From contig CAZYCX010000003.1 of assembly GCA_964645875.1 (NCBI GenBank), positions 1 to 63,439 of the forward strand: DNA of 63,439 nt. Reading direction: 5' to 3'. This DNA is from an uncultured Acidimicrobiaceae bacterium (lineage in GTDB: Bacteria; Actinomycetota; Acidimicrobiia; Spongiisociales; ZC4RG35). Under the pieces are notes generated by a model. The model saw only the letters and a program-made list of their open reading frames with translations. It was not told where the DNA came from and did no database searches. Of the stretch, positions 48,931 to 61,036 are shown one piece after another (position 1 is the stretch's first letter; each line of letters opens with the position of its first letter). Both the position numbers and the translations under genes were made by a program.

Positions 48931-49037
48931 GGACGGCAGCGGTGCCCCAGGAGGCCGGTATTGATCGTGGGTGGGTGGGAGTCGCTGATCGTCCGGGAGG
49001 TGGACCAACCCGGTTCCGGGGCGATAGGTTGCCATCC

Positions 49038-51347
49038 ATGAGAGTCGTCTGTGTCGGTGGCGGTCCCGCCGGTCTCTACCTGGCCATCCAGCTCAAGAAG
49101 GCCCGTCCCGACCACGAGATCACCATTCTCGAGAGGAATCGCCCCGGCGACGCCTACGGATTCGGCGTCGTGTTCTCGGAGGAGACACTCGATCACTTCG
49201 CCGCGGCCGATCTCGAGTCCTACGAGGAGCTGACCAAGGCTTTTCGGGAATGGGGCGACATCGAAGTGCGCCACTTCGCCGGCGAGCGTTTCGTCTCAGG
49301 GGGCCATGGCTTCGCCGCCGTCGGCCGCAAGGAGCTTCTCGCTCTCCTCAGCCGTCGCGCCGAGGAGCTAGGTGTCGACCTCCGATTCTCGACCGAGGTG
49401 CCCGCCCTCGCATCGGTGAGCGACGCCGACCTCGTGGTGGGGGCAGATGGGGCCAACTCGATGGTGCGGGCGGAGCTGGCCGAGCGGTTGCAGCCGTCGG
49501 TCGACTGGAGGGTCAACAAGTACATCTGGTTCGGCACCGAGAAGGTGTTCGATCGTTTCCACTTCATCTTCGTGGACACGCCATCCGGTCTCGTGTGGGC
49601 CCATATCTACCCGTACTCGTCGGAGGGGAGCACCTTCATCGTGGAGATGGCACCCGACACCTGGCGCGCGTTGGGGCTCGATCGCACCGAAGACGAGGTC
49701 TTCCCGCCCGGGGTCAGCGACGAGCATGCCCTGGAGGTGTGCGAGTCGCTGTTCGCCTCGCACCTCGACGGCTACGGGCTGATCGGCAACAACTCGAAAT
49801 GGCTCCGGTTCCCGACGGTCACGTGCGAGAAGTGGCACGACGGGAACGTCGTGCTGGTGGGAGACGCGGCACACACCGCCCACTTCTCCGTGGGCTCGGG
49901 TACGAAGCTGGCGATGGAGGACGCGATCGCCCTCGCCGAAGTGCTGGCGGAGGGCGATCCGCTTCCCGATGCGCTCGAGACTTACGAGACGGTCCGCCGT
50001 CCCGAAGTGGAGAGCCTGCAGCGGGCGGCGAAGGCGAGCCTGGAGTGGTTCGAAGGGGCGGACCGATACCGCCACTTGGAACCCGAGCAGTTCGTCTTCA
50101 GCATGCTGACCCGCAGTCAGCGGGTCACCTACGACAACCTGCGTCTCCGCGACCCCGAGTACATGGCATCCGTCGACCGCTGGTACGCCACCTCCGACCA
50201 CGGCTCTCCGGTACCGACCCACCCGGAGACTCCGCCGATGTTCCACCCCTTCCAGGTGCGGGACGTCGTGCTCCCCAACCGTGTCGTGGTGTCACCGATG
50301 GACCAGTACTCGGCCGTCGACGGGATGCCAAACGACTGGCATCTGGTACATCTGGGGAGCCGGGCCGTCGGTGGGGCCGGGTTGGTCATGACGGAGATGA
50401 CCTGCGTTTCTCCCGAGGGGCGGATCTCCCCTGCGGACACCGGGATCTGGAACGACGAACAGGAGGCCTACTGGGGGCGCATCGTCGCGTTCGTCCACGA
50501 GCACTCGGTGTCGCGTATCGGGCTCCAGATCGGCCACTCCGGGAGAAAGGGGTCCACCAAGCGGATGTGGGAGGGTGACACCGACCCGCTCGACGAAGGC
50601 AACTGGGATATCATGGCGCCGTCGCCGATCAGGTATCGGCCCGACAGCCAGGTCCCGAGAGAGATGACGAGGTCCGACATGGACGTGGTCTTGGCCCAGC
50701 ACGTGGAGGCGGCGGAACGGGGAGACCGGGCGGGCTTCGACTGGTTGGAGCTCCATTTCGCCCACGGATACCTGGCTTCCAGTTTCCTCACGCCTCTGGC
50801 CAACCAGAGGTCGGATCGATACGGCGGCTCGTTGCAGAACCGGATGCGTTACCCGCTGGAGATCTTCGACGCGGTGCGGAAGGTGTGGCCGGAAACCAAG
50901 CCGATCTCGGTACGGATCTCGGCCACCGACTGGGTGCCGGGCGCCTTCGACGGCGACGACGCGGTCGAGTTCTCCCGGGCGCTTCGTGATCACGGATGTG
51001 ATCTGATCGACGTGTCCACCGGCCAGACTTCGATCCATGCCCGTCCCGAGTACGGGCGTCTCTATCAGACACCTTTCAGCGACCGGATCCGCAACGAGGT
51101 GGGGATGGCGACGATGACGGTCGGCGCGGTGTCGTCGATCGACGACATTCACAACATCCTCGTCGCCGGCCGCGCCGACCTGTGCGTCATGGCCCGCCCC
51201 CACCTGGTCGACCCTTACTGGACCCTCAACGCCGCCATCGATCTCGGCTACACCGGGCATCGGTTCCCCAACCAGTATCTCTCCGGGCTCGCTGCCAGGA
51301 GACGGGAACAGGATCCGATCGCCCCGGACGTGTTCCGCCAGGGCTGA
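49038..51347 (+). CDS. Bifunctional FAD-dependent aromatic-CoA-type monooxygenase / Old Yellow Enzyme-family NADH:flavin oxidoreductase (salicylyl-CoA 5-hydroxylase / 2-aminobenzoyl-CoA monooxygenase-reductase-like)
   Basis: N-terminus [14 protein letters not shown]...[18 protein letters not shown]-terminus [11 protein letters not shown]...HSGRKGS...ELHFAHGYL...SDRYGGS (OYE motifs). Confidence 0.85.
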
Positions 51348-52547: not shown

Positions 52548-53405
52548 ATGGAGCCCGCTGTACTCGCTGGATCCCGTAGAGGTCGCAGCGGCTCTCATCG
52601 AGGGACGCTGGTGAGGGTCCCGCTCCCGGTGAGGGCTCTGTCACCGGTCACCTTCGAGACATGGCTGACGCCGCCCCCGTTGGGAGCCCGAGCAGCAGCG
52701 TTGGACAGCGACGCCCTCGCCGACATGGGCGACATGTTCTTCGGTGGTGTGCCCGGACATGAGACCGGTGAGGGCCCGTTGGTCGTTGCTCTCCACGGGT
52801 GGGGTGGCCGTGGCGCCCAAATGGCCCCGGTCGCCCGTCATCTCGCATCGATGGGGCTTCGTGTCGTGATACCCGACATGCCCGGACATGCCGGCGGGCC
52901 GAGAACGGACATCAAGGAGTCGAGCGCCGTCCTCCGCGATGTGATCGAAGACACGGGTGAGCCGGTGGCCATCATCGCCCACTCCTTCGCCAGCATGGTG
53001 CTGCGGCTCGCCTTCGTCGAAGCCGCGCCGTCGAAGGTGGTGTTGGTCGCACCCGCCCTCGACGTCCGCGACGCCCTTCGGGTCTTCGGGGATCGTCTCC
53101 AGCTCATGCCCTGGGTGCGACGCGGGCTGCGCAAACGGCTCGAGCGTTGGGACCCGGCGTTGTGGCCGACCCTTGCCGGGCTGTGCCCCGATCAGCTGCC
53201 GGGGGCGGAGATCCTCATCGTCCACGATCCGGACGACCAGGAGACACCCTTCTCCCGCTCCGCGGAGCTGGCGGCCATCCGGCCTGCCACGTCGATCCTT
53301 CCCCTTCCGGGGGCGGGGCACAGCCGGATACTCTCCGAGCGGGTGGCGCTGGATGCGGTGGCCGACTTCGTGGGAGAGTCTGTGCGCGACGAGAGCGCCG
53401 CCTGA
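52548..53405 (+). CDS. Alpha/beta hydrolase
   Basis: LVVALHGWGGRG, nucleophile-elbow-like IIAHSFAS, C-terminal PGAGHSRIL. The start is uncertain. Confidence 0.75.
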   Translation: MEPAVLAGSRRGRSGSHRGTLVRVPLPVRALSPVTFETWLTPPPLGARAAALDSDALADMGDMFFGGVPGHETGEGPLVVALHGWGGRGAQMAPVARHLASMGLRVVIPDMPGHAGGPRTDIKESSAVLRDVIEDTGEPVAIIAHSFASMVLRLAFVEAAPSKVVLVAPALDVRDALRVFGDRLQLMPWVRRGLRKRLERWDPALWPTLAGLCPDQLPGAEILIVHDPDDQETPFSRSAELAAIRPATSILPLPGAGHSRILSERVALDAVADFVGESVRDESAA

Positions 53406-53524: not shown

Positions 53525-54928
53525 TTACTTGGTGCGCCAGGACCCCTGGGCGTAGCCCTCGCGTGCGTCCCTCGAGAACGGAGTGGGCGCCACCCGGACC
53601 CTGATCTCGGTCTGCTCGTGCGACTCCACCGTGGTCTTTGCCGTCCCGCCGTCCTCCTCGCCCCACACCAGGGTGAGCTGGTCGCCCTCTTCGATGTCGG
53701 GGCCGACCACTCCGAGTGAGAGGAAGGCACGGTCGTTGAACGTGTACCCGCTGAACATCGAGAAGCCGACATGGCCCCCGTCGTCGTCGACCACCTTGTC
53801 GTAGGTGGCCGACGTGTAGTTGGAGAGGGGGAGATCGATGTACTTGATGTTCTCTCCGGGGGCGTTGAACATCGAGCGCCACACCTCCACCACATCGTCG
53901 GTGTTCCACTCGAAGGTCACCTTCTTGCGATGCTCTTGGTCGTGGGTCTTCTCGAGGGCGTCACGGCCGATGAAGTCGTGGTCGAACTTCACGTAGAAGC
54001 CATAGCCGAGCTCGTAGGGGGTCAGGTAGTAGTCCTCGATGTCGTCGGACACGAAGCTCCCTCCGATCGACCCCGCCGCCTCATAGGAGTCCCCCGGGAG
54101 CCACTCCCGGTAAGCCTTCATCTCGTCCCCCGAGTAGACGGCGGGCAGCGGCGAGGGGATCCATCCCGATTCGAGCGTGTTGGTGGCGTAGGCGCGTGAT
54201 CCCACCGGCACCAGCCCGAACTCGGCTCCGGCTTCGAGGATGGCGCTGCGGATCTCCTCGCCCTGCTCATAGGGGCCCCAGATCTCCATGCCGGGCGCAC
54301 CGGCCATGCCGTGGTGGAACGCCGGGACCTCGCGGCCGGCGACCTTCATCGTGCCCACGTTGAAGAACTTCACGTCGGGTATCGGCCCACCGTTGAGCTT
54401 CTCCAGGACCTTCATCGCGTTCGGTCCCTGGATCTGATACCGATAGTGACGTCGGACCACAGGCTGACCCATGGGACGGGCGGGTGACCTGTCGTCCCTT
54501 TCCAGCTCGACGTCCCAGTCGCCGGTCTCGGCATGGAACTGGACCCAGTTCACCGTGGGTACCCGTCCCACCATGTTGAACTTCTCGTCCTCGGGACGGA
54601 ACAGGATCACGTCTCCGATGACGTGCCCGCCGTAGCTGGTGGGGACGAAGTGCTTCGCCCTGGTGGTGGGGAAGTTGGCGAAGCTGTTTATGGCCAGCGA
54701 CGAGAGCAGTGCTTCCGCTTCGGGTCCCTCCACCGTCAGCTCGGCCATGTGATGCGACTGATCGAAGAGGACCGCGGTCTCCCGCCAGGCTCTCTGCTCG
54801 TCGCGCCAGTTGCTGAACTCGGAGGGGACGACCGGATACACATAGGCTCCGATCGGGGAGTTGCGCAACATCGAGACGACGTTGTCGGTGGACTGGAGAA
54901 CGTCTTCGAGGCTCTGATGGTGGGTCAC
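53525..54928 (-). CDS. GcvT/aminomethyltransferase-family tetrahydrofolate-dependent demethylase (LigM/DesA-like), paralogue 1
   Basis: About 467 aa. FSNWRDEQRAWRETAVLFDQSHHM, EGPEAEALL, FHHGMAGAPGMEIWGP. GTG 54928 is preceded by gaggaga. Confidence 0.8.
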   Translation of the reverse strand: MTHHQSLEDVLQSTDNVVSMLRNSPIGAYVYPVVPSEFSNWRDEQRAWRETAVLFDQSHHMAELTVEGPEAEALLSSLAINSFANFPTTRAKHFVPTSYGGHVIGDVILFRPEDEKFNMVGRVPTVNWVQFHAETGDWDVELERDDRSPARPMGQPVVRRHYRYQIQGPNAMKVLEKLNGGPIPDVKFFNVGTMKVAGREVPAFHHGMAGAPGMEIWGPYEQGEEIRSAILEAGAEFGLVPVGSRAYATNTLESGWIPSPLPAVYSGDEMKAYREWLPGDSYEAAGSIGGSFVSDDIEDYYLTPYELGYGFYVKFDHDFIGRDALEKTHDQEHRKKVTFEWNTDDVVEVWRSMFNAPGENIKYIDLPLSNYTSATYDKVVDDDGGHVGFSMFSGYTFNDRAFLSLGVVGPDIEEGDQLTLVWGEEDGGTAKTTVESHEQTEIRVRVAPTPFSRDAREGYAQGSWRTK

Positions 54929-54968
54929 TTGGGTCTCCTCACACTGGCGACGTCCACCGATCATACGT

Positions 54969-54985: not shown

Positions 54986-55020
54986 GTCTCTTCTCGCCGG
55001 CAGGCTCTTGTATCCTCACG

Positions 55021-55123
55021 GTGGTCATCTAGAGCGGCCGAGGGACAGGCCCGACGAAGCCGCGGCAACCACTCACCGGCGAGAAGGTGCCAATGCCTGA
55101 TCGATGATGACGTCGATGAGGTG
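55021..55123 (+). promoter_or_regulatory. SAM-I (S-box) riboswitch
   Basis: TCATC-T-AGAG-C-GGCC-GAGGGA-CA-GGCCC-GA-CGAA-GCCGC-GGCAACC...GGTGCCAATGCC...GATGA matches the SAM-I core (AGAGnGG..GAGGGA..GGCCC..UGAA.CC..GCAACC..GGUGCcAAuuCC). P2 is GCGGC/GCCGC. P1 is UCAUC/GAUGA. The P1 3-prime strand runs into the SD GAGGTG, 6 nt before ATG 55129. Confidence 0.85.
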
Positions 55124-55128
55124 AACGT

Positions 55129-56277
55129 ATGGCCCGTGGTCAGGTGAACGAACCGGTCGGTGGGGAGATCGATCGGTTCTTCGACAATCGCGCCGCCTAT
55201 CTGATGTTCACGACCGCCACCAACGAGAAGGCGGTGGTCGCGGAGCGGATCGGCGCGGAGCTCGACCTGATCGGGCCGGGAGAGTCAGCCCTGAGAGTGT
55301 TCGACGCCGGCATGGGCGATGCTTCGGTGTTGAGCCAGCTGATGCGTCGCATGCACACCGTGTTCCCGCACATCCCCTGGCTGGTGGTCGCCAAGGAGAT
55401 CTCGATCGAAGACCTCCGGTTGGCTTTGGGCCGGATGCCGGACCGGCTCTTCGAGCATCCCGAGATGGTCCTGGTGGTGACCAACATGAACTATCGGGAG
55501 GCTCCCGCGTTGGTCCCGGTTGGGGACAACGCCTCCCAACTGAACTGGATCGAAGCTCCGCTCGAAGGCTCCACCGCCGACGACTTCGGCCGGCAGATCC
55601 ACGACCTCTTCGACGACCTGGCGCGTGCCTGGGAAGTGGTCACCAGCCCCAAGACCGGCAACCCCCTCTATGCCACGCCCTCGGCGCTGGTGGTCTACCG
55701 CCGTGATCGCCAGTTCATCCTGAAGCGGGTGATCCCCGAGCCGGGCGGGATCGAGGGTCGTTACGACCTCGTTGTCGCCTCGCAGCCCTACCGGGCCCGG
55801 ACCAGCGCCGAGAGGAAGACGCGGACGGTGCTGGTTCCCTTGTCCCGGGCGCTCGCTCCCGGCGGTCGCCTGGTGGTGGTCCATGCCCACGGCAACGACC
55901 CCGGTCTCGAGATCATCCGCAACGTCTGGCCGGGCGAGGACCCGTTCCAGACCGGGCGTGCAGACCTGTTGGCCGAGGCACAACGCCAACTCACCGATCC
56001 CGAGGACGCCGCTTTGGTGTATCCCCACCTCAGCGACGAGGAGGCGATCTTCCGTTACGAACTCCACGCGATGCCCTCCGAGAGGACGGAGCACATCGGG
56101 ACCGGCCTGACCCTCGCCGCCTGGAACGCCGCCGCCTACGTTGCCCAGATAGACGAGTCCCGGCTCTCTGCTGCCATGGCCTCCGGCGTCTACGTGGAGG
56201 CGACCCGGGAGGTCCTGGCGCGCTACGGAGGGGTCTGGTTCAACGACGAGGCGTACGTGATCACCCGCTCAGTGTGA
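55129..56277 (+). CDS. Uncharacterised protein with class I methyltransferase-fold motifs, under SAM-I riboswitch control
   Basis: 382 aa. LRVFDAGMGDASV (motif I-like) and YDLVVASQPY...LAPGGRLVVVHAHG (post-motif-like), separated by a long insertion. Family not recognised. Confidence 0.8.
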   Translation: MARGQVNEPVGGEIDRFFDNRAAYLMFTTATNEKAVVAERIGAELDLIGPGESALRVFDAGMGDASVLSQLMRRMHTVFPHIPWLVVAKEISIEDLRLALGRMPDRLFEHPEMVLVVTNMNYREAPALVPVGDNASQLNWIEAPLEGSTADDFGRQIHDLFDDLARAWEVVTSPKTGNPLYATPSALVVYRRDRQFILKRVIPEPGGIEGRYDLVVASQPYRARTSAERKTRTVLVPLSRALAPGGRLVVVHAHGNDPGLEIIRNVWPGEDPFQTGRADLLAEAQRQLTDPEDAALVYPHLSDEEAIFRYELHAMPSERTEHIGTGLTLAAWNAAAYVAQIDESRLSAAMASGVYVEATREVLARYGGVWFNDEAYVITRSV

Positions 56278-56459: not shown

Positions 56460-57605
56460 GTGAAACGCATTAGAGGGATCTGGCGGTTCTCGATGGTCTT
56501 GGTGGTGGTGGCGTTGATCGCTGCCGCCTGTGGTGATGGTGACACCACCGACACCACGGAGCCCCCGGCCGCCACGACCACAGCCCCGTCGGGGGACACG
56601 ACCACGACGGAGGCGATGGAGGATACGACGACCACGGCCGCCGATTCGATGGACTTCGGTGACCCGGTGACGTTGACATTGGGTCATCCGTTCCCGGCGG
56701 TCCACCCGATCGCGGTGAACGCCCTGGAGCCGTATGCGGAGGCTGTCAACGAGGCCACCAACGGGACGATCTCGATCGAGTTCCAACCGGGCGGCGCGCT
56801 GGCGGCTCCTCCGGCCACCTTCGAGAACACCGTGGCCGGCGGTCAGGACATGGGTTGGGCCCTCCAGGGGTATCACGCCGGTGTCTTCCCGGTGACCGAG
56901 ATCGTCGAACAGCCCTTCCAGTTCAGCTCGGCGATGCAGGCCACCCAGACGCTGTGGGACCTCTACGACGAGTTCCCGGCGTTGCAGGACGAGTATTCGG
57001 ACGTCCAACTGCTCGGACTGTGGACCCATGACATCGGTGACATCTGGACCAAGGATGTCCCGGTGCAGACGGTCGAGGACATGCAGGGACTGACCCTCAG
57101 GTTCCCCACCGGGATCATGGGCCTGGTGATGGAGGCCTTGGGTGCGACGACGGTCGGTCTGCCCGCACCGGAGATCTTCGACTCGCTGTCGACCGGGGTC
57201 ATCGACGGTCTGTCCATCGCGGTCTCCGGCTTGGAGAGCTTCCAGCTCTACCCCGAGCTGAATTACGGGACCACCTGTGACTGCTACGTGGCCGCCCAGT
57301 ACCTGGTGATCAACCTGGACAGCTGGAACTCGTTGGCACCGGACGCCCAACAGGTGATGCTGGATCTGGGTCGTGAATACTCCCTCGTGGCCGCCGAGGT
57401 CTACGACCAGGCCTATGTGGCGATCTTCCAGAAGGCGATGGACGAGGGCATCGAGATCTACGAGCTGCCCGAGGACGAGCTTGCCCGCTGGCATGAGATC
57501 GGACAGCAGGTCACCGACGAGTGGATCGCCGCTCGTGAGGACGCCGGTGTCCCCGCTCAGGACATGTACGACCGGATGCAGGACATCAAGGCCGGATATC
57601 AATAG
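56460..57605 (+). CDS. dctP: TRAP transporter substrate-binding lipoprotein (DctP type)
   Basis: Lipobox LIAAACGDG, Thr-rich linker, DctP-family body. GTG start preceded by aggaggaag. Confidence 0.85.
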   Translation: MKRIRGIWRFSMVLVVVALIAAACGDGDTTDTTEPPAATTTAPSGDTTTTEAMEDTTTTAADSMDFGDPVTLTLGHPFPAVHPIAVNALEPYAEAVNEATNGTISIEFQPGGALAAPPATFENTVAGGQDMGWALQGYHAGVFPVTEIVEQPFQFSSAMQATQTLWDLYDEFPALQDEYSDVQLLGLWTHDIGDIWTKDVPVQTVEDMQGLTLRFPTGIMGLVMEALGATTVGLPAPEIFDSLSTGVIDGLSIAVSGLESFQLYPELNYGTTCDCYVAAQYLVINLDSWNSLAPDAQQVMLDLGREYSLVAAEVYDQAYVAIFQKAMDEGIEIYELPEDELARWHEIGQQVTDEWIAAREDAGVPAQDMYDRMQDIKAGYQ

Positions 57606-57746: not shown

Positions 57747-58292
57747 TTGAAGGGGAGCCGTGGCACGCCACGCTGGGTCAGCTGGATCCGCCGCTTCAAC
57801 AGGTTCACCCATTACGTGTCGGGGTTGGCTCTGGTGGCGATCCTGGCCATGACGATCGTCGACATCGTCGGGCGGAATTTCTTCCGACAGCCTTTCCGGG
57901 GCACCGTCGAGCTGACCAGCATGATCCTGGTGGTGGTGGTGTTCATGGCCGTGGCCCGCTCCGAGGACATGGGCGACCACATCACCATCGACCTCATCTA
58001 CGAGCGGGTGGGTAAGGGCTCCAAGGCCTTTCTCGACATCTTCTCCGATCTGTTCACCGCAGTGGTGATGGCGTTGGTGTCCTACCGCCTCTACCAGTTC
58101 GTCCTCCGCAACCAGGCTTCGGGTGCGGAGACTCCGGTCCTCAACTTCCCCTTGTGGCCGTTCGTGGCGGTGGCGGCGGTCGGCGCCGCCTTGTACGTGG
58201 TCTCGACGGTGATGCGGGTGGTGCTGCGGTTGACGGGTGAGCCGGTCAACGCCGTCGATCCTCATGCGCCGGATGCGGGAGTGGAGGTTTGA
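57747..58292 (+). CDS. dctQ: TRAP transporter small permease (DctQ type)
   Basis: Four hydrophobic segments with the VDIVGRNFF motif. The start is uncertain. Confidence 0.8.
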   Translation: MKGSRGTPRWVSWIRRFNRFTHYVSGLALVAILAMTIVDIVGRNFFRQPFRGTVELTSMILVVVVFMAVARSEDMGDHITIDLIYERVGKGSKAFLDIFSDLFTAVVMALVSYRLYQFVLRNQASGAETPVLNFPLWPFVAVAAVGAALYVVSTVMRVVLRLTGEPVNAVDPHAPDAGVEV

Positions 58293-59590
58293 GCCCCGAA
58301 GTCGTCGGCATGCTGGGGATGCTCGCCCTGGTGGTCCTGTTGTTCATGCGGGTTCCGGTGGCGATCGCGATGATCGGTGTCGGACTGGTCGGGTTCGGGG
58401 TGATCATCAACTGGAACGCCGCCCTGGCGCGGCTCGGGTCGGACACCTTCTTCGCCGCCTCGCTCTACAGCCTCTCAGTGATCCCCCTGTTCGTCTTCAT
58501 GGGGCTGGTACTCGCCGCCTCGGCGTTGGGTGAGGACGTCTACAAGGCCATCGACGCCTTTCTGTGGCGTCTCCGCGGCGGCCTCGGAGTCGCCACCATC
58601 GGCGCTTCTGCCCTGTTCGGGGCCGTGAGCGGCTCGGCGGTCGCCTCCGCAACCACCATGTCGGTGGTGGCGGTGCCCGAGATGCAGCGGTTCGACTACG
58701 ACGACGGGTTCGCCGCCGGCACCGCCGCCGTCGGGGGAACCCTCGGGATCCTCATCCCCCCCTCGGCGATCCTGGTCCTCTACGGGGTGCTGACCGAAGA
58801 GCCCATCGGTCAGGTCCTCATCGGAGGCATCATTCCCGGGATCCTCACCACCGCCCTGTTGATGATCACCGCCTACCTGGTGGTCCGGGCCCGGCCCCAC
58901 TACGCCCCCCGACCCGCCGAGGCCCCCGACCTCAGCAAGTGGAAGGCGATCCGTCTGATATGGGCGGTGCCGGTGATATTCGGGATCAGCATGGGCGGCA
59001 TCTACTTCGGCTTGTTCACCCCCACCGAAGCCGGCGCCGCCGGCGCCTTTCTCTCCATCGCCTACGGCGTGATCACCAGACGCATGACATGGAGCGGGTT
59101 CATGGGAGCACTGAGCCGGACCATCCGCACCACCGCCTTCATCTTCATGCTCGTCATCGGCGGACAGATCTTCGGGTTCTTCCTGTCGGCATCCCGCATC
59201 CCCATCGAGCTCGGGCAATGGATCGAACAGCTCGACATCGCCGCCTGGATCATCATCACCCTCATCTTCGTCGTCTACTTCATCCTCGGAGCCCTCATGG
59301 ACGAGATCGCCATCCTCGTCATCATGACCCCCATCATGTACCCGGTGATCATCGGTCTCGAGTACTCCGGGGTGTGGTTCGGTGTGCTCACCATCATGAT
59401 GCTCCTCACCGGGCTCCTCCAGCCACCGGTCGGCCTCCTCTGCTTCGTGGTGTCCGGGGTCACCAAGATCCCCCTCCAGGACGTCTTCCGTGGCATCTTC
59501 CCGTTCGTGGGGGCGCTGGCCGTGGCCATCATGCTGGTCATCTTCTTCCCCGACCTGGTCACCTGGCTCCCCGACCTGATGACCAGATAG
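58289..59590 (+). CDS. dctM: TRAP transporter large permease (DctM type)
   Basis: 433 aa polytopic. GSGSAVASATTM and PPSAILVLYG motifs. TTGA overlap with dctQ (TTG start 58289, TGA stop 58290-58292). Confidence 0.9.
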   Translation: MSPEVVGMLGMLALVVLLFMRVPVAIAMIGVGLVGFGVIINWNAALARLGSDTFFAASLYSLSVIPLFVFMGLVLAASALGEDVYKAIDAFLWRLRGGLGVATIGASALFGAVSGSAVASATTMSVVAVPEMQRFDYDDGFAAGTAAVGGTLGILIPPSAILVLYGVLTEEPIGQVLIGGIIPGILTTALLMITAYLVVRARPHYAPRPAEAPDLSKWKAIRLIWAVPVIFGISMGGIYFGLFTPTEAGAAGAFLSIAYGVITRRMTWSGFMGALSRTIRTTAFIFMLVIGGQIFGFFLSASRIPIELGQWIEQLDIAAWIIITLIFVVYFILGALMDEIAILVIMTPIMYPVIIGLEYSGVWFGVLTIMMLLTGLLQPPVGLLCFVVSGVTKIPLQDVFRGIFPFVGALAVAIMLVIFFPDLVTWLPDLMTR

Positions 59591-59653: not shown

Positions 59654-61036
59654 CTAGGGGAGTGCGCCCGTTCGGTAGACCTCCCGGGCGACCTTGGCGT
59701 ACGGAACGGGGCTGACGATCGCCCTGATCTCCATCTGCACGTGTGGCTCCACGGTCGGTTTGGACGTTCCCCCCTCCGGCTCGCCCCAGATCAGAGTGAC
59801 CTCCCTCCCCGGCACGGCGTGCTCCTTGTCGAGGACGGCCAGGGTCAGCATCTTGGCTTCGTTCGAGCTGTAGCCGATCCACGTCGAGATCCCCATGGTG
59901 TCACCGTCGAGGGTCACCTCGTCATAGGGGTGCATCGAGTAGACAGCCGACGGGAACTCGATGAACTTGCCCCGCCGCTCCGGCTCGTCCAACTGTGAGC
60001 CGATCACTGCCAACACGTCGTCGTCTTCCAGGGCGAGAGTCACCTTCTCCCGGGGCGGATCGGCGGCCATCTCCCGGAGGGCCTCTTTGCCTATGTAGTC
60101 GTGGTCGAAGCGCACGAAGTGCCCGTATCCGAGGTCCCAGGGGGTGAAGTAGTAGTCCTCGATGTCCTCGGACACGAAGCTTCCGCCCAGCGAAGCCTTC
60201 GCTTCGTACGAATTCGCCGGCAGCCACTCACGGTATGCCTTCATCTCGGGGCTGGTGTAGATGGCGGGGAGGGGAGAGGGGATCCATCCCGACTCCAGGG
60301 TGTTGGAGGAGTAGGCCCTGGCCCCGACCCGCCGGATGCCGAACTCCTCGCCGGCTCCGACGATGGCCTCTACCACGGGCTCTTTGTCGTCCCATGGCCC
60401 GAACAGCTCGAAGCCGGGTTGGCCCGCCATGCCGTGCCTGAGGGCGCGCACCTGCCGACCCGCTATCTCCAACGTGGTCATGTTGAAGAAGCGCACCTCG
60501 GGTGGGGGGCCACCGAGCACCTTCTCCATCGTGGCCATGGCATTGGGCCCCTGGATCTGGACCCGGTAGGACCGCCGACGGGATGGGTCGTCGCGCATGA
60601 CGGTGCGCTCGTCGATCTCCCACTCCACGTCGAAGCCCCCGGTCTCGGCCTGGTACACGACCCAGTTGATCGATGGGATCCGACCCACCAACTCGTAGAC
60701 CTGGTCCTCGAGGTGGAAGAGGATGACATCTCCGATGACGTGGCCCTTGGGGGTGCAGGGGGCCAGTTGCTTGGCCTTGTCGACGTCGAAGCCTTCGAAC
60801 GAGTTGAAGCCGACCAGTTTCAGGACGTCGAGGGCTCCCGGGCCTTCGAGACGCAGATCGACCATGTGATAGGAGAGGTCGAACAGGATGCAGGTGTTCT
60901 GCCACGCCCACTGCTCGTCCCGCCAGTTGGTGAACTCGCCCGTGACCGGATAGACGTTGGGCCCCGTCTGCATGTTGCGCAGCATGTCGACCACGCTGTC
61001 GGTGCCCTCGATCAACTCCTGGAGATTGCTCGCCAC
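59654..61036 (-). CDS. GcvT/aminomethyltransferase-family tetrahydrofolate-dependent demethylase (LigM/DesA-like), paralogue 2
   Basis: 460 aa, colinear with 53525-54928 (FTNWRDEQWAWQNTCILFDLSYHM, RHGMAGQPGFELFGP, YTSPEMKAYREWLP). Confidence 0.8.
   Translation of the reverse strand: MASNLQELIEGTDSVVDMLRNMQTGPNVYPVTGEFTNWRDEQWAWQNTCILFDLSYHMVDLRLEGPGALDVLKLVGFNSFEGFDVDKAKQLAPCTPKGHVIGDVILFHLEDQVYELVGRIPSINWVVYQAETGGFDVEWEIDERTVMRDDPSRRRSYRVQIQGPNAMATMEKVLGGPPPEVRFFNMTTLEIAGRQVRALRHGMAGQPGFELFGPWDDKEPVVEAIVGAGEEFGIRRVGARAYSSNTLESGWIPSPLPAIYTSPEMKAYREWLPANSYEAKASLGGSFVSEDIEDYYFTPWDLGYGHFVRFDHDYIGKEALREMAADPPREKVTLALEDDDVLAVIGSQLDEPERRGKFIEFPSAVYSMHPYDEVTLDGDTMGISTWIGYSSNEAKMLTLAVLDKEHAVPGREVTLIWGEPEGGTSKPTVEPHVQMEIRAIVSPVPYAKVAREVYRTGALP

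Follow-up and report, generated by a model that had tools for sequence, protein, structure and literature searches.

A SAM-I riboswitch before an unnamed family of methyltransferase-fold proteins, and the case for control in the ON direction

The locus and the X protein family

The DNA considered here, hereafter the window, is a stretch of 63,439 nucleotides from contig CAZYCX010000003.1 of an uncultured Acidimicrobiaceae bacterium. It has a G+C content of 65.7%, and its closest relatives are metagenome-assembled genomes (MAGs) of Acidimicrobiia, with 96% protein identity to DATKCE01. At positions 55129-56277 of the + strand it carries an open reading frame (ORF) for a 382-aa protein of an unnamed family, for which the working name X is used, with the fold of the class I S-adenosylmethionine (SAM)-dependent methyltransferases (MTases). 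Directly before it, at 55022-55110 of the same strand, lies a match to the SAM-I riboswitch aptamer (RF00162). An earlier note on this DNA, here called the original prediction, had presented X as an unrecognised methyltransferase-fold protein and the direct target of a SAM OFF-switch.

The reading frame is present as first described, and the two segments then cited as MTase motifs, VFDAGMGDASV and DLVVASQPY...LAPGGRLVVVH, correspond to residues 57-67 and 213-251. The statement that the protein could be assigned to no known family also holds, as X has no match above cut-off among the Pfam and NCBIfam profile hidden Markov models and none among PDB sequences, either as a single query (phmmer) or as a 34-sequence profile. 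Among distant relatives within the family, Pfam gives only sub-threshold matches over motif I (E = 0.03-0.2), none of them significant, and X has no Pfam match at E <= 0.01 to MesX (DUF1852, PF08908) or MetW (PF07021). The proposed fold is confirmed by an AlphaFold2 model with a predicted local distance difference test score (pLDDT) of 91.0 and a predicted template modelling (TM) score of 0.89, which was built from a diverse 34-sequence alignment and replaced a mediocre first model based on 29 close homologues (pLDDT 67.6). The fold observed in it is the seven-stranded Rossmann-like alpha/beta fold of class I SAM-MTases, and the best Foldseek matches are members of this class: 105 PDB entries match at E <= 1e-3, and the best 50 of these 105 are almost all SAM-MTases. 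The top matches are enzymes of the small-molecule type, namely HNMT (1jqd, E = 1.5e-8), OxaG, the mycobacterial fatty-acid O-MTase FAMT, SABATH enzymes, and the thiol MTases TmtA/GtmA. Sequence identity to these structural neighbours is 9-12%, with TM-scores of 0.42-0.49 on the query and 0.53-0.62 on the target (0.49 and 0.62 for TmtA/GtmA).

In the sequence of X, motif I takes the form D59-A-G61-M-G63-D64, strand beta2 ends in E90 and strand beta3 in N119; G61, G63, E90, and N119 are at least 90% conserved in the 34-sequence alignment, which extends down to 27% identity. A conserved S218-Q-P-Y-R222 (SQPYR) segment follows beta4, and motifs particular to the family include RFFDxR...TxEK near the N-terminus, DRFxEHPE, ASQPYR, and AAWNAAAYVAQI; many invariant residues lie outside the SAM motifs. 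One possibility raised in the original prediction was a homocysteine or thiol methyltransferase supplied by an imported methyl donor; no invariant cysteine or obvious zinc-thiolate site is present in the family alignments. The insertion originally put at about 130 aa is closer to 95 aa and occupies roughly residues 120-210, between beta3 (113-118) and beta4 (212-218). HNMT, SABATH enzymes, the fatty-acid O-MTase, and TmtA/GtmA likewise combine a class I Rossmann core with an inserted or capping domain and act on small molecules, whereas the insertion of X and its N-terminal RFFDxR...TxEK motif are specific to the X family. On the strength of the model, X is a class I SAM-methyltransferase fold outside every characterised family, and it is probably a catalytically active, SAM-binding small-molecule methyltransferase.

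The observed distribution of the family is broad. A word-indexed search returned at least 4,966 homologous proteins at E <= 1e-3, and those of them that have a source name are all labelled 'hypothetical' except for one stray JGI label. An exhaustive search of representatives at 50% identity gave 892 clusters of relatives, 152 of them at E <= 1e-30, and a scan of GTDB species representatives located relatives in 245 species, mainly Acidimicrobiia with some Arenicellales, Spongiisociaceae, and Kiloniellales. Identity within the Acidimicrobiia is 57-96%, with a mean column identity of 74%. Homologues in SAR11/Pelagibacter are 39% identical and abundant in Tara Oceans data, and those of Burkholderiales are 53% identical and carry an extra N-terminal segment of about 60-100 aa. 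This extension has the motif LxxIxxFCxxxGxAESTFGRxAVNDGKxVxRLRDG (P0122, P0134, P0137, P0140, P0143, P0148; L201, L202, L214, L216) and no Pfam match; it resembles a small helix-turn-helix (HTH)-type domain and may replace the riboswitch as a regulator.

A SAM-I aptamer without P4

The RF00162 match, at 72.7 bits (gathering score 44.4; E = 4.2e-15), is the sole Rfam match in the window and ends 18 nt before the ATG of X; the SAM-I leaders of X homologues score 60-74 bits. Helices P1, P2, and P3, the pseudoknot, and the AGAG, GGCAACC, and GGUGCCAAU elements of the core are all present. The P1 helix is formed by a 5' strand at 55025-55029 (UCAUC) and a 3' strand, GAUGA(U), at 55103-55108, and the pseudoknot by CAGG in the P2 loop (55046-55049) and CCUG in J3/4 (55096-55099). 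In an alignment of 14 X leaders the P2 and P3 pairs are retained throughout and CAGG and CCUG are invariant, while the P1 core reads CAUC/GAUG in 11 and UAUC/GAUG, with a U-G wobble, in the other three. As judged by its score, the SAM-I aptamer is authentic. The original claim of a SAM riboswitch directly before X is therefore upheld as to class, with two amendments: the canonical P4 helix is absent from the aptamer, and the OFF label was an assumption rather than an observation.

The four-way junction to which P4 belongs is not found, as cmscan deletes P4 both in the window and in eight aptamers of the same lineage, seven of which precede MetH, MetE, MetY, ThrC-like, and OsmC-like genes and one an X homologue (L095). 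A hairpin at the P4 position arises only if a distal P1 is assumed. In the lineage aptamers cmscan closes P1 with GAUGAG(C), 3 nt after the pseudoknot strand CCUG, and compensatory variants of P1 occur among them (UAUC/GAUA, CCUCAUC/GAUGAGG, ACCAUC/GAUGG). Because these aptamers are P4-less and show compensatory changes in P1, the proximal GAUGA (55103-55107) is taken as the homologous P1 3' strand.

A putative -10-like hexamer, TATCCT (TANNNT; 55011-55016, + strand), is proposed from its conserved position: each of the 16 leaders compared has a TANNNT hexamer 5-8 nt before its P1 5' strand, and the transcript therefore probably starts at about this strand. A scan with the sigma-70 consensus located no promoter, and no intrinsic terminator was found between the aptamer and the X ORF. 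An outer helix pairing CCUC(A), upstream of P1, with the Shine-Dalgarno (SD) sequence was considered and rejected; CCUC(A) coincides with the TANNNT hexamer and is probably untranscribed.

Recurrence of the riboswitch and its regulon

A survey of homologue leaders, which the original prediction had called for, was carried out by running the Rfam models at their gathering thresholds over 80 species-level X genome loci. In 15 of the 80 (L001, L002, L004, L005, L011-L015, L019, L024, L025, L034, L039, L040) and in two further metagenomic leaders, X is directly preceded by a SAM-I aptamer on the same strand, and the X proteins of the 15 loci are 64-96% identical to that of the window. Close relatives, L003 and L006-L010 among them, are without the aptamer, and the riboswitch association is therefore recurrent but not universal. 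At gathering score, no SAM-II, SAM-IV, SAM-V, or S-adenosylhomocysteine (SAH) riboswitch stands before X in any of the 80 genome loci or in the loci from Burkholderiales and SAR11 that were scanned, and inspection of the SAR11 intergenic regions by eye revealed nothing obvious. Two of the SAM-I loci (L019 and L024) belong to one MAG (JAHWLC01), which thus holds two paralogous cassettes of SAM-I, X, and a gene resembling methylenetetrahydrofolate reductase (MTHFR); in both, a dctM gene of a tripartite ATP-independent periplasmic (TRAP) transporter lies just upstream of the riboswitch.

A pattern scan of metagenomes yielded 124 aptamers of the same lineage. The genes that follow them are OsmC-like (36), MetH (16), ThrC-like (15), MetY (12), a 357-aa MetE-like protein (6), MetE (4), and X (2). 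The OsmC-like genes form the largest class of this regulon, and before them the aptamer is followed directly by a short ORF rich in Met and Cys (as in L116, - strand, about 2150-2210; L142, L101, L199), for example MRQPMCFMVMCRRS..., MRVVRSYLMCPSSR..., and MTSLVRGVMCARSR..., whose SD sequence overlaps the P1 3' strand and which may encode a leader peptide or a small sulfur-rich peptide. The 357-aa protein (L190, - strand; L090, L108, L110, L144, L150) has no Pfam match and contains an HLCYGD motif like the MetE zinc site; it may represent a further divergent family of core methionine synthases.

A hairpin predicted to bury the ribosome-binding site

The SD sequence of X, GAGG (55118-55121, + strand), stands 7 nt before the ATG and within the lower stem of a hairpin predicted for the ligand-free (apo) leader (55095-55122, + strand), in which GCCU-G-AUCGAUG (55095-55106) pairs with CGUCGAU-G-AGGU (55111-55122) around an AUGA loop. 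The hairpin makes use of the pseudoknot strand and the P1 3' strand, so that it and the SAM-bound aptamer cannot form together. RNAalifold gives it as the consensus of the X leaders, and its cells are 92% paired among 13 distinct leaders compared with 21-56% in slid controls. The complementarity is observed in the sequences themselves: in the window the duplex of the aptamer 3' strand with the ribosome-binding site (RBS) has an energy of -16.9 kcal/mol, against -6.6 +/- 2.0 for shuffled sequences. Over 15 X leaders the median energy for the 3' 13-mer of the aptamer with the RBS region is -16.3 kcal/mol, whereas 57 classical leaders in which this aptamer precedes a met gene have a median of -6.9 (Mann-Whitney p = 2.4e-8). 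Eight of the 15 X leaders beat their dinucleotide shuffles at p <= 0.004. Complementarity of this kind is confined to the X leaders and is absent from the lineage aptamers before bona fide met genes.

The consequence for translation was estimated as the energy required to open the RBS, taken from the partition function over positions -13 to +3, with the ligand-bound (holo) state enforced by keeping the pseudoknot sites unpaired and P1 formed. For X in the window, opening costs 11.8 kcal/mol in the apo leader and 5.4 kcal/mol once the holo fold is imposed. Aptamer formation lowers it by 2.2-10.2 kcal/mol in 13 of the 15 X genome leaders and by 14.5 and 3.2 kcal/mol in the two metagenome leaders; among 54 classical leaders the change has a median of +0.35 to +2.4. 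An expression platform complementary to the aptamer's own 3' strand is the arrangement of ON-type translational switches and speaks against the OFF polarity first proposed. Once the points to the contrary given below are weighed in, there is somewhat better than an even chance that the X riboswitch is of the ON type, with SAM freeing the RBS, and the premise of an OFF-switch is probably wrong. If the ON reading is right, nothing paradoxical is left in the control of a SAM consumer, whose repression at high SAM the original prediction had found counter-intuitive.

One leader has an additional element. In L034 (2592-2650) the SD hairpin is followed by an upstream ORF (uORF) of about 14 codons that begins with GUG and whose UGA stop overlaps the AUG of X (AUGA), an overlap by which translation of X would be coupled to the riboswitch-controlled uORF.

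Gene neighbourhoods of X

Genes for O-demethylases that depend on tetrahydrofolate (THF) flank X in the window. On the upstream side and divergent from X is a gene for a LigM-like THF-dependent vanillate/3-O-methylgallate O-demethylase (53525-54964, - strand; NF047885, 719 bits against a cut-off of 580), the product of which is 5-methyl-THF; this gene is kept upstream of X in L001-L004 and L006. Downstream, a gene for a DesA/LigM-like THF-dependent aryl O-demethylase (59654-61036, - strand) scores 789.5 bits to NF047633 (cut-off 800) and 602 bits to NF047885 (cut-off 580). It is convergent with, and 3' of, the TRAP transporter genes dctP (56460-57605), dctQ (57747-58292), and dctM (58289-59590), all on the + strand and identified by the Pfam domains DctP, DctQ, and DctM, so that LigM and DesA lie on either side of X. 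The transporter genes follow X on the same strand after a gap of 183 nt, as judged by position in the sequence, and the same X-TRAP arrangement is found in L001, L002, L004, and L005. The solved solute-binding proteins closest to the window DctP are 7nrr, 7nsw, 7nr2, and 5i5p, which we take to be binding proteins for lignin-derived aromatic acids.

Farther out in the window are genes for an HxlR regulator, an alpha/beta-hydrolase, a fusion of an FAD-dependent monooxygenase with an Old Yellow Enzyme (Oxidored_FMN) domain, and a ModABC-like transporter. The fusion protein comprises 801 aa (48942-51347, + strand) and recurs near X and LigM (L001:1-2289, L002, L027, L029). The alpha/beta-hydrolase (52548-53405, + strand) is one of several of about 270-285 aa encoded near or directly upstream of X in several Acidimicrobiia (L003, L004, L007); orthology with the hydrolase of a SAR11 metY-X locus (L203:6171-6986) was considered and not used, the similarity being generic (E = 1e-6). 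No MTHFR-like gene and no core MetE-like gene is present inside the window itself.

Both occur beside X elsewhere, as established by ORF clustering and profile searches of the X loci. A divergent MTHFR-like gene is immediately 3' of X in nine loci, with overlapping start and stop codons in L011-L013, and a gene for a 371-aa core MetE-like protein (445 bits to NF005085; E = 9e-102 to 1ypx) is 3' of X in about 15. The order riboswitch, X, MTHFR-like, core MetE-like is found in L015 and L024, and riboswitch, X, core MetE-like in L025. TRAP or Liv-type transporters are common neighbours. In Burkholderiales an MTHFR-like gene of about 300 aa begins 3 nt after X or overlaps it, with a 370-aa Meth_synt_2 gene nearby; in one locus there is a MetY-like gene instead. 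Most SAR11 loci have X divergent from the gene for formate-THF ligase (FTHFS), and one clade has the order metY, alpha/beta-hydrolase, X. Distant orthologues are found in housekeeping contexts, including secY-adk-map, tsaE/tsaB/rimI/tsaD, hflX, and tig/clpX with tRNA genes.

Two further arrangements were observed in these groups. In L204-L212, which are SAR11 loci, X is always followed after about 170 nt by a conserved 99-aa ORF without a Pfam match. A group of loci without a riboswitch (L016, L017, L020-L023, L028, L030, L031, L042, L055, L058) has the pair of X and core MetE-like genes between a catechol 2,3-dioxygenase-like gene and the boxC/boxB genes of the benzoyl-CoA epoxidase pathway, with a Liv-type ABC transporter upstream, a link to aromatic catabolism.

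The MTHFR-like partner is closest to S6MTHFR of Sphingobium SYK-6 (7XG9; E = 5.7e-33, compared with 3e-6 for ordinary MTHFRs), a type 4 MTHFR that oxidises the CH3-THF made by LigM/DesA (PMC11868366). The suggested tie of X to methionine or methyl metabolism is supported in Acidimicrobiia, Burkholderiales, and SAR11 by the neighbourhoods observed, which bring together MTHFR-like, core MetE-like, LigM/DesA, MetY, and FTHFS genes, and their common denominator is 5-methyl-THF, C1-THF, and methionine. One ground for giving up the original prediction would have been that homologues were never associated with riboswitches and belonged to a characterised family unrelated to sulfur or methyl metabolism; what was found is a recurrent SAM-I aptamer and neighbours of methionine and one-carbon (C1) metabolism.

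A model of SAM-activated translation and its alternatives

The reading favoured here joins an ON switch activated by SAM, a catalytic SAM-using enzyme, and a role as a valve for methyl overflow or C1 flux, and is given a probability of roughly 0.4. Its polarity, the catalytic activity of X, and the overflow role are inferred from computation. In the absence of SAM, the pseudoknot strand and the P1 3' strand (GCCUGAUCGAUG) would pair with CGUCGAU-G-AGGU and bury the SD sequence, and on binding of SAM the pseudoknot and P1 would hold the nucleotides of GCCUGAUCGAUG, leaving the SD sequence and the AUG free. Abundant SAM would lead to synthesis of X, which may serve as a methyl sink or overflow valve at the SAM/5-methyl-THF/methionine node, and translational coupling would allow the S6MTHFR-like enzyme to be made alongside it. 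The MTHFR-like enzyme and the THF-dependent demethylases would then handle methyl and C1 flux, in a setting where much CH3-THF is presumed to arise from the action of LigM/DesA on imported methoxy-aromatics. With methionine and SAM in full supply, the surplus methyl could go to oxidation or a sink, with regeneration of THF and homocysteine. Induction of a SAM consumer at high SAM is, on this model, physiologically coherent, and SAH riboswitches, which switch ON ahcY, metF, and metH, provide a precedent for ON control of such genes.

A considerable number of points weigh against this reading. To our knowledge every characterised SAM riboswitch is an OFF switch, the literature located on SAM-I treats the class as OFF, and no publication on the X family or on a natural SAM-I ON switch was found. 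The same-lineage aptamer serves metH, metE, metY, and ThrC-like genes, as expected of SAM-repressed methionine synthesis, and the company of X itself, with metY in SAR11 and with core MetE-like genes, would be expected of a methionine-synthesis gene repressed by SAM. On the RNA side, P1 is short, at only 5-6 bp, and the apo hairpin shows no two-sided covariation, its 5' strand being frozen by aptamer function. With pseudoknot and ligand terms left aside, the nearest-neighbour model places the holo fold 4-17 kcal/mol above the apo fold in energy. The model takes no account of tertiary structure, ligand energy, or co-transcriptional folding and its kinetics, and three leaders (L002, L025, L040) fit the ON model poorly. 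An alternative holo fold with a four-way junction can be drawn, with the hairpin in the place of P4 and the SD sequence or the AUG covered by a distal P1. In the window, L002, and L004 seven of eight pairs of this distal P1 form, and in L005 and L095 it has 7-8 bp at the start codon. On the protein side, the type 4 MTHFR hallmarks are Leu48-Pro49, Arg78, and Pro268 (PMC11868366), and the MTHFR-like partner in L011 has Ser for Leu48 and Thr for Pro268, with Pro49 and Arg78 kept; in the Burkholderiales partner Leu-Pro is kept and position 268 is Ser. As two hallmarks differ, the direction of the partner's reaction is not inferable from sequence.

The principal competitor, a distinct possibility on which the odds are roughly two to one against, is a conventional translational switch turned OFF by SAM, with X as an accessory or catalytic component of methionine synthesis: a partner of the core MetE-like synthase in the manner of MesX-MesD, a SAM-binding accessory resembling MetW, or a new methyl-THF:homocysteine methyltransferase. 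It draws on the regulon of the lineage aptamer, which is otherwise one of methionine biosynthesis (the MetH, ThrC-like, MetY, MetE, and MetE-like genes counted above), on the riboswitch operons of X with the core MetE-like gene in L025 and with both the MTHFR-like and core MetE-like genes in L015 and L024, on the recurrence of the trio of X, MTHFR-like, and core MetE-like genes in Burkholderiales, on the metY, hydrolase, X order of SAR11, and on the clear similarity of the core MetE-like protein to NF005085 and 1ypx. The core MetE protein MesD requires a partner protein (PMC7857596), which sets a precedent for such an arrangement. In structural terms the SAM-bound hairpin would be P4, with P1 closed by a strand overlapping the SD sequence or the AUG, and RNAfold favours distal closing helices of this kind in the window, L002, L004, L005, and L095. 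Yet the distal P1 strands are barely above chance overall (combined p about 0.04) and not beyond chance in most lineages; the placements considered for the distal 3' strand, namely the start codon, GGUGAACG, and GAUGAGG combined with a mini-P4 of 4 bp, give good duplex energies in a few lineages only, and were kept as a rival model alone. In this rival no fold exposes the RBS, since the apo state already buries the SD sequence in a helix of 10-11 bp and would leave no ON state to be switched off, and the lineage aptamers before bona fide met genes have neither P4 nor complementarity to the RBS. The full set of SAM-binding motifs retained in X would be odd in an enzyme needed when SAM is scarce, and X lacks an invariant cysteine for thiolate activation.

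Two other explanations change the role of X rather than the polarity of the switch. The eukaryotic MTHFR is allosterically inhibited by SAM, and X might similarly be a non-enzymatic, SAM- or SAH-sensing regulatory subunit of the adjacent MTHFR-like enzyme, perhaps also of the MetE-like protein. It would then correspond in function, though not by descent, to the domain through which SAM binds and regulates eukaryotic MTHFR, or to the MetW partner of MetX. The overlap or close spacing of the X and MTHFR-like genes in two phyla is typical of complex subunits, the very high conservation of X points the same way, and the HTH-like N-terminal extension of some homologues hints at sensing; nevertheless many orthologues have no adjacent MTHFR and stand in housekeeping contexts or next to FTHFS, and the SQPYR segment after beta4 and the invariant residues outside the SAM motifs fit an active site, which together leave a sensor role improbable. 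More improbable still is a housekeeping methyltransferase whose target is some protein or RNA of the translation machinery, with incidental links to C1 and methionine metabolism. The contexts of the distant orthologues would suit such an enzyme, as would the loose likeness that SQPY presumably bears to the (N/D/S)PPY motif of amino-methyltransferases. The structural neighbours of X, however, are small-molecule MTases and not those of RNA, DNA, or protein, genes of the MTHFR-like, MetE-like, MetY, and FTHFS kinds are found beside X repeatedly across three bacterial groups, and the X family is translationally coupled to MTHFR.

Relation to known systems and significance

The X leader has the aptamer core of canonical SAM-I (RF00162), consisting of P1, P2, P3, and the CAGG/CCUG pseudoknot, and shares with SAM-IV and SAM-I/IV the lack of P4 between J3/4 and the P1 3' strand. 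It differs from characterised SAM-I riboswitches in having no terminator, in its translational mode of control, in its predicted reversed polarity, and in a P1 of 5-6 bp. The logic predicted for it is that of the add adenine riboswitch of Vibrio vulnificus, a translational ON switch whose SD region is occupied by the P1 3' strand until ligand stabilises P1 and frees the SD sequence and start codon; the X leader belongs to another aptamer class with another ligand, and its pseudoknot strand (CCU) would also serve as an anti-SD sequence. The SAH riboswitch regulon likewise places an operon that can hold MTHFR and a methionine-synthase-like gene under ON control by a metabolite of the methyl cycle, whereas the X leader is SAM-I without any SAH-riboswitch match and its first gene encodes an MTase-fold protein, not SAH hydrolase.

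For the protein, the closest functional analogy to the proposed role is glycine N-methyltransferase (GNMT), a SAM overflow valve linked to 5-methyl-THF and MTHFR, to which X has no homology; GNMT is controlled by allostery, and X would be controlled by a riboswitch. MesX-MesD and MetW-MetX resemble the X loci in that an uncharacterised partner is encoded beside an enzyme of the methionine pathway, and MetW has an MTase-like fold, but X lacks PF08908 and PF07021, and the core MetE-like protein encoded next to it belongs with PRK06520/1ypx rather than with MesD. The riboswitch and X thus belong to the known kinds SAM-I and class I MTase, with potential for novelty on both the RNA and the protein side. 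In its fullest form, in which the first natural ON-type SAM-I riboswitch controls the founding member of an unrecognised and globally abundant MTase family that returns surplus methyl groups of SAM, together with the S6MTHFR-like MTHFR, to the folate C1 pool or a sink, the proposal is rather unlikely; if true, it would describe a bacterial counterpart of the GNMT/MTHFR circuit of SAM homeostasis.

SAM riboswitches are a textbook example of feedback OFF control, and a natural ON variant, if true, would be unprecedented for the class, would show the ease with which polarity can be inverted, and would offer a ready-made SAM-inducible part. The X family comprises thousands of sequences without annotation and is highly conserved in abundant environmental lineages including SAR11. 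Its reaction, once found, would supply a missing piece of methyl and one-carbon metabolism in bacteria and may explain the use of PRK06520/1ypx-type core MetE-like proteins and S6MTHFR-like reductases, and X bears on how the methyl groups of lignin-derived methoxy-aromatics are balanced against the demand for methionine and SAM.

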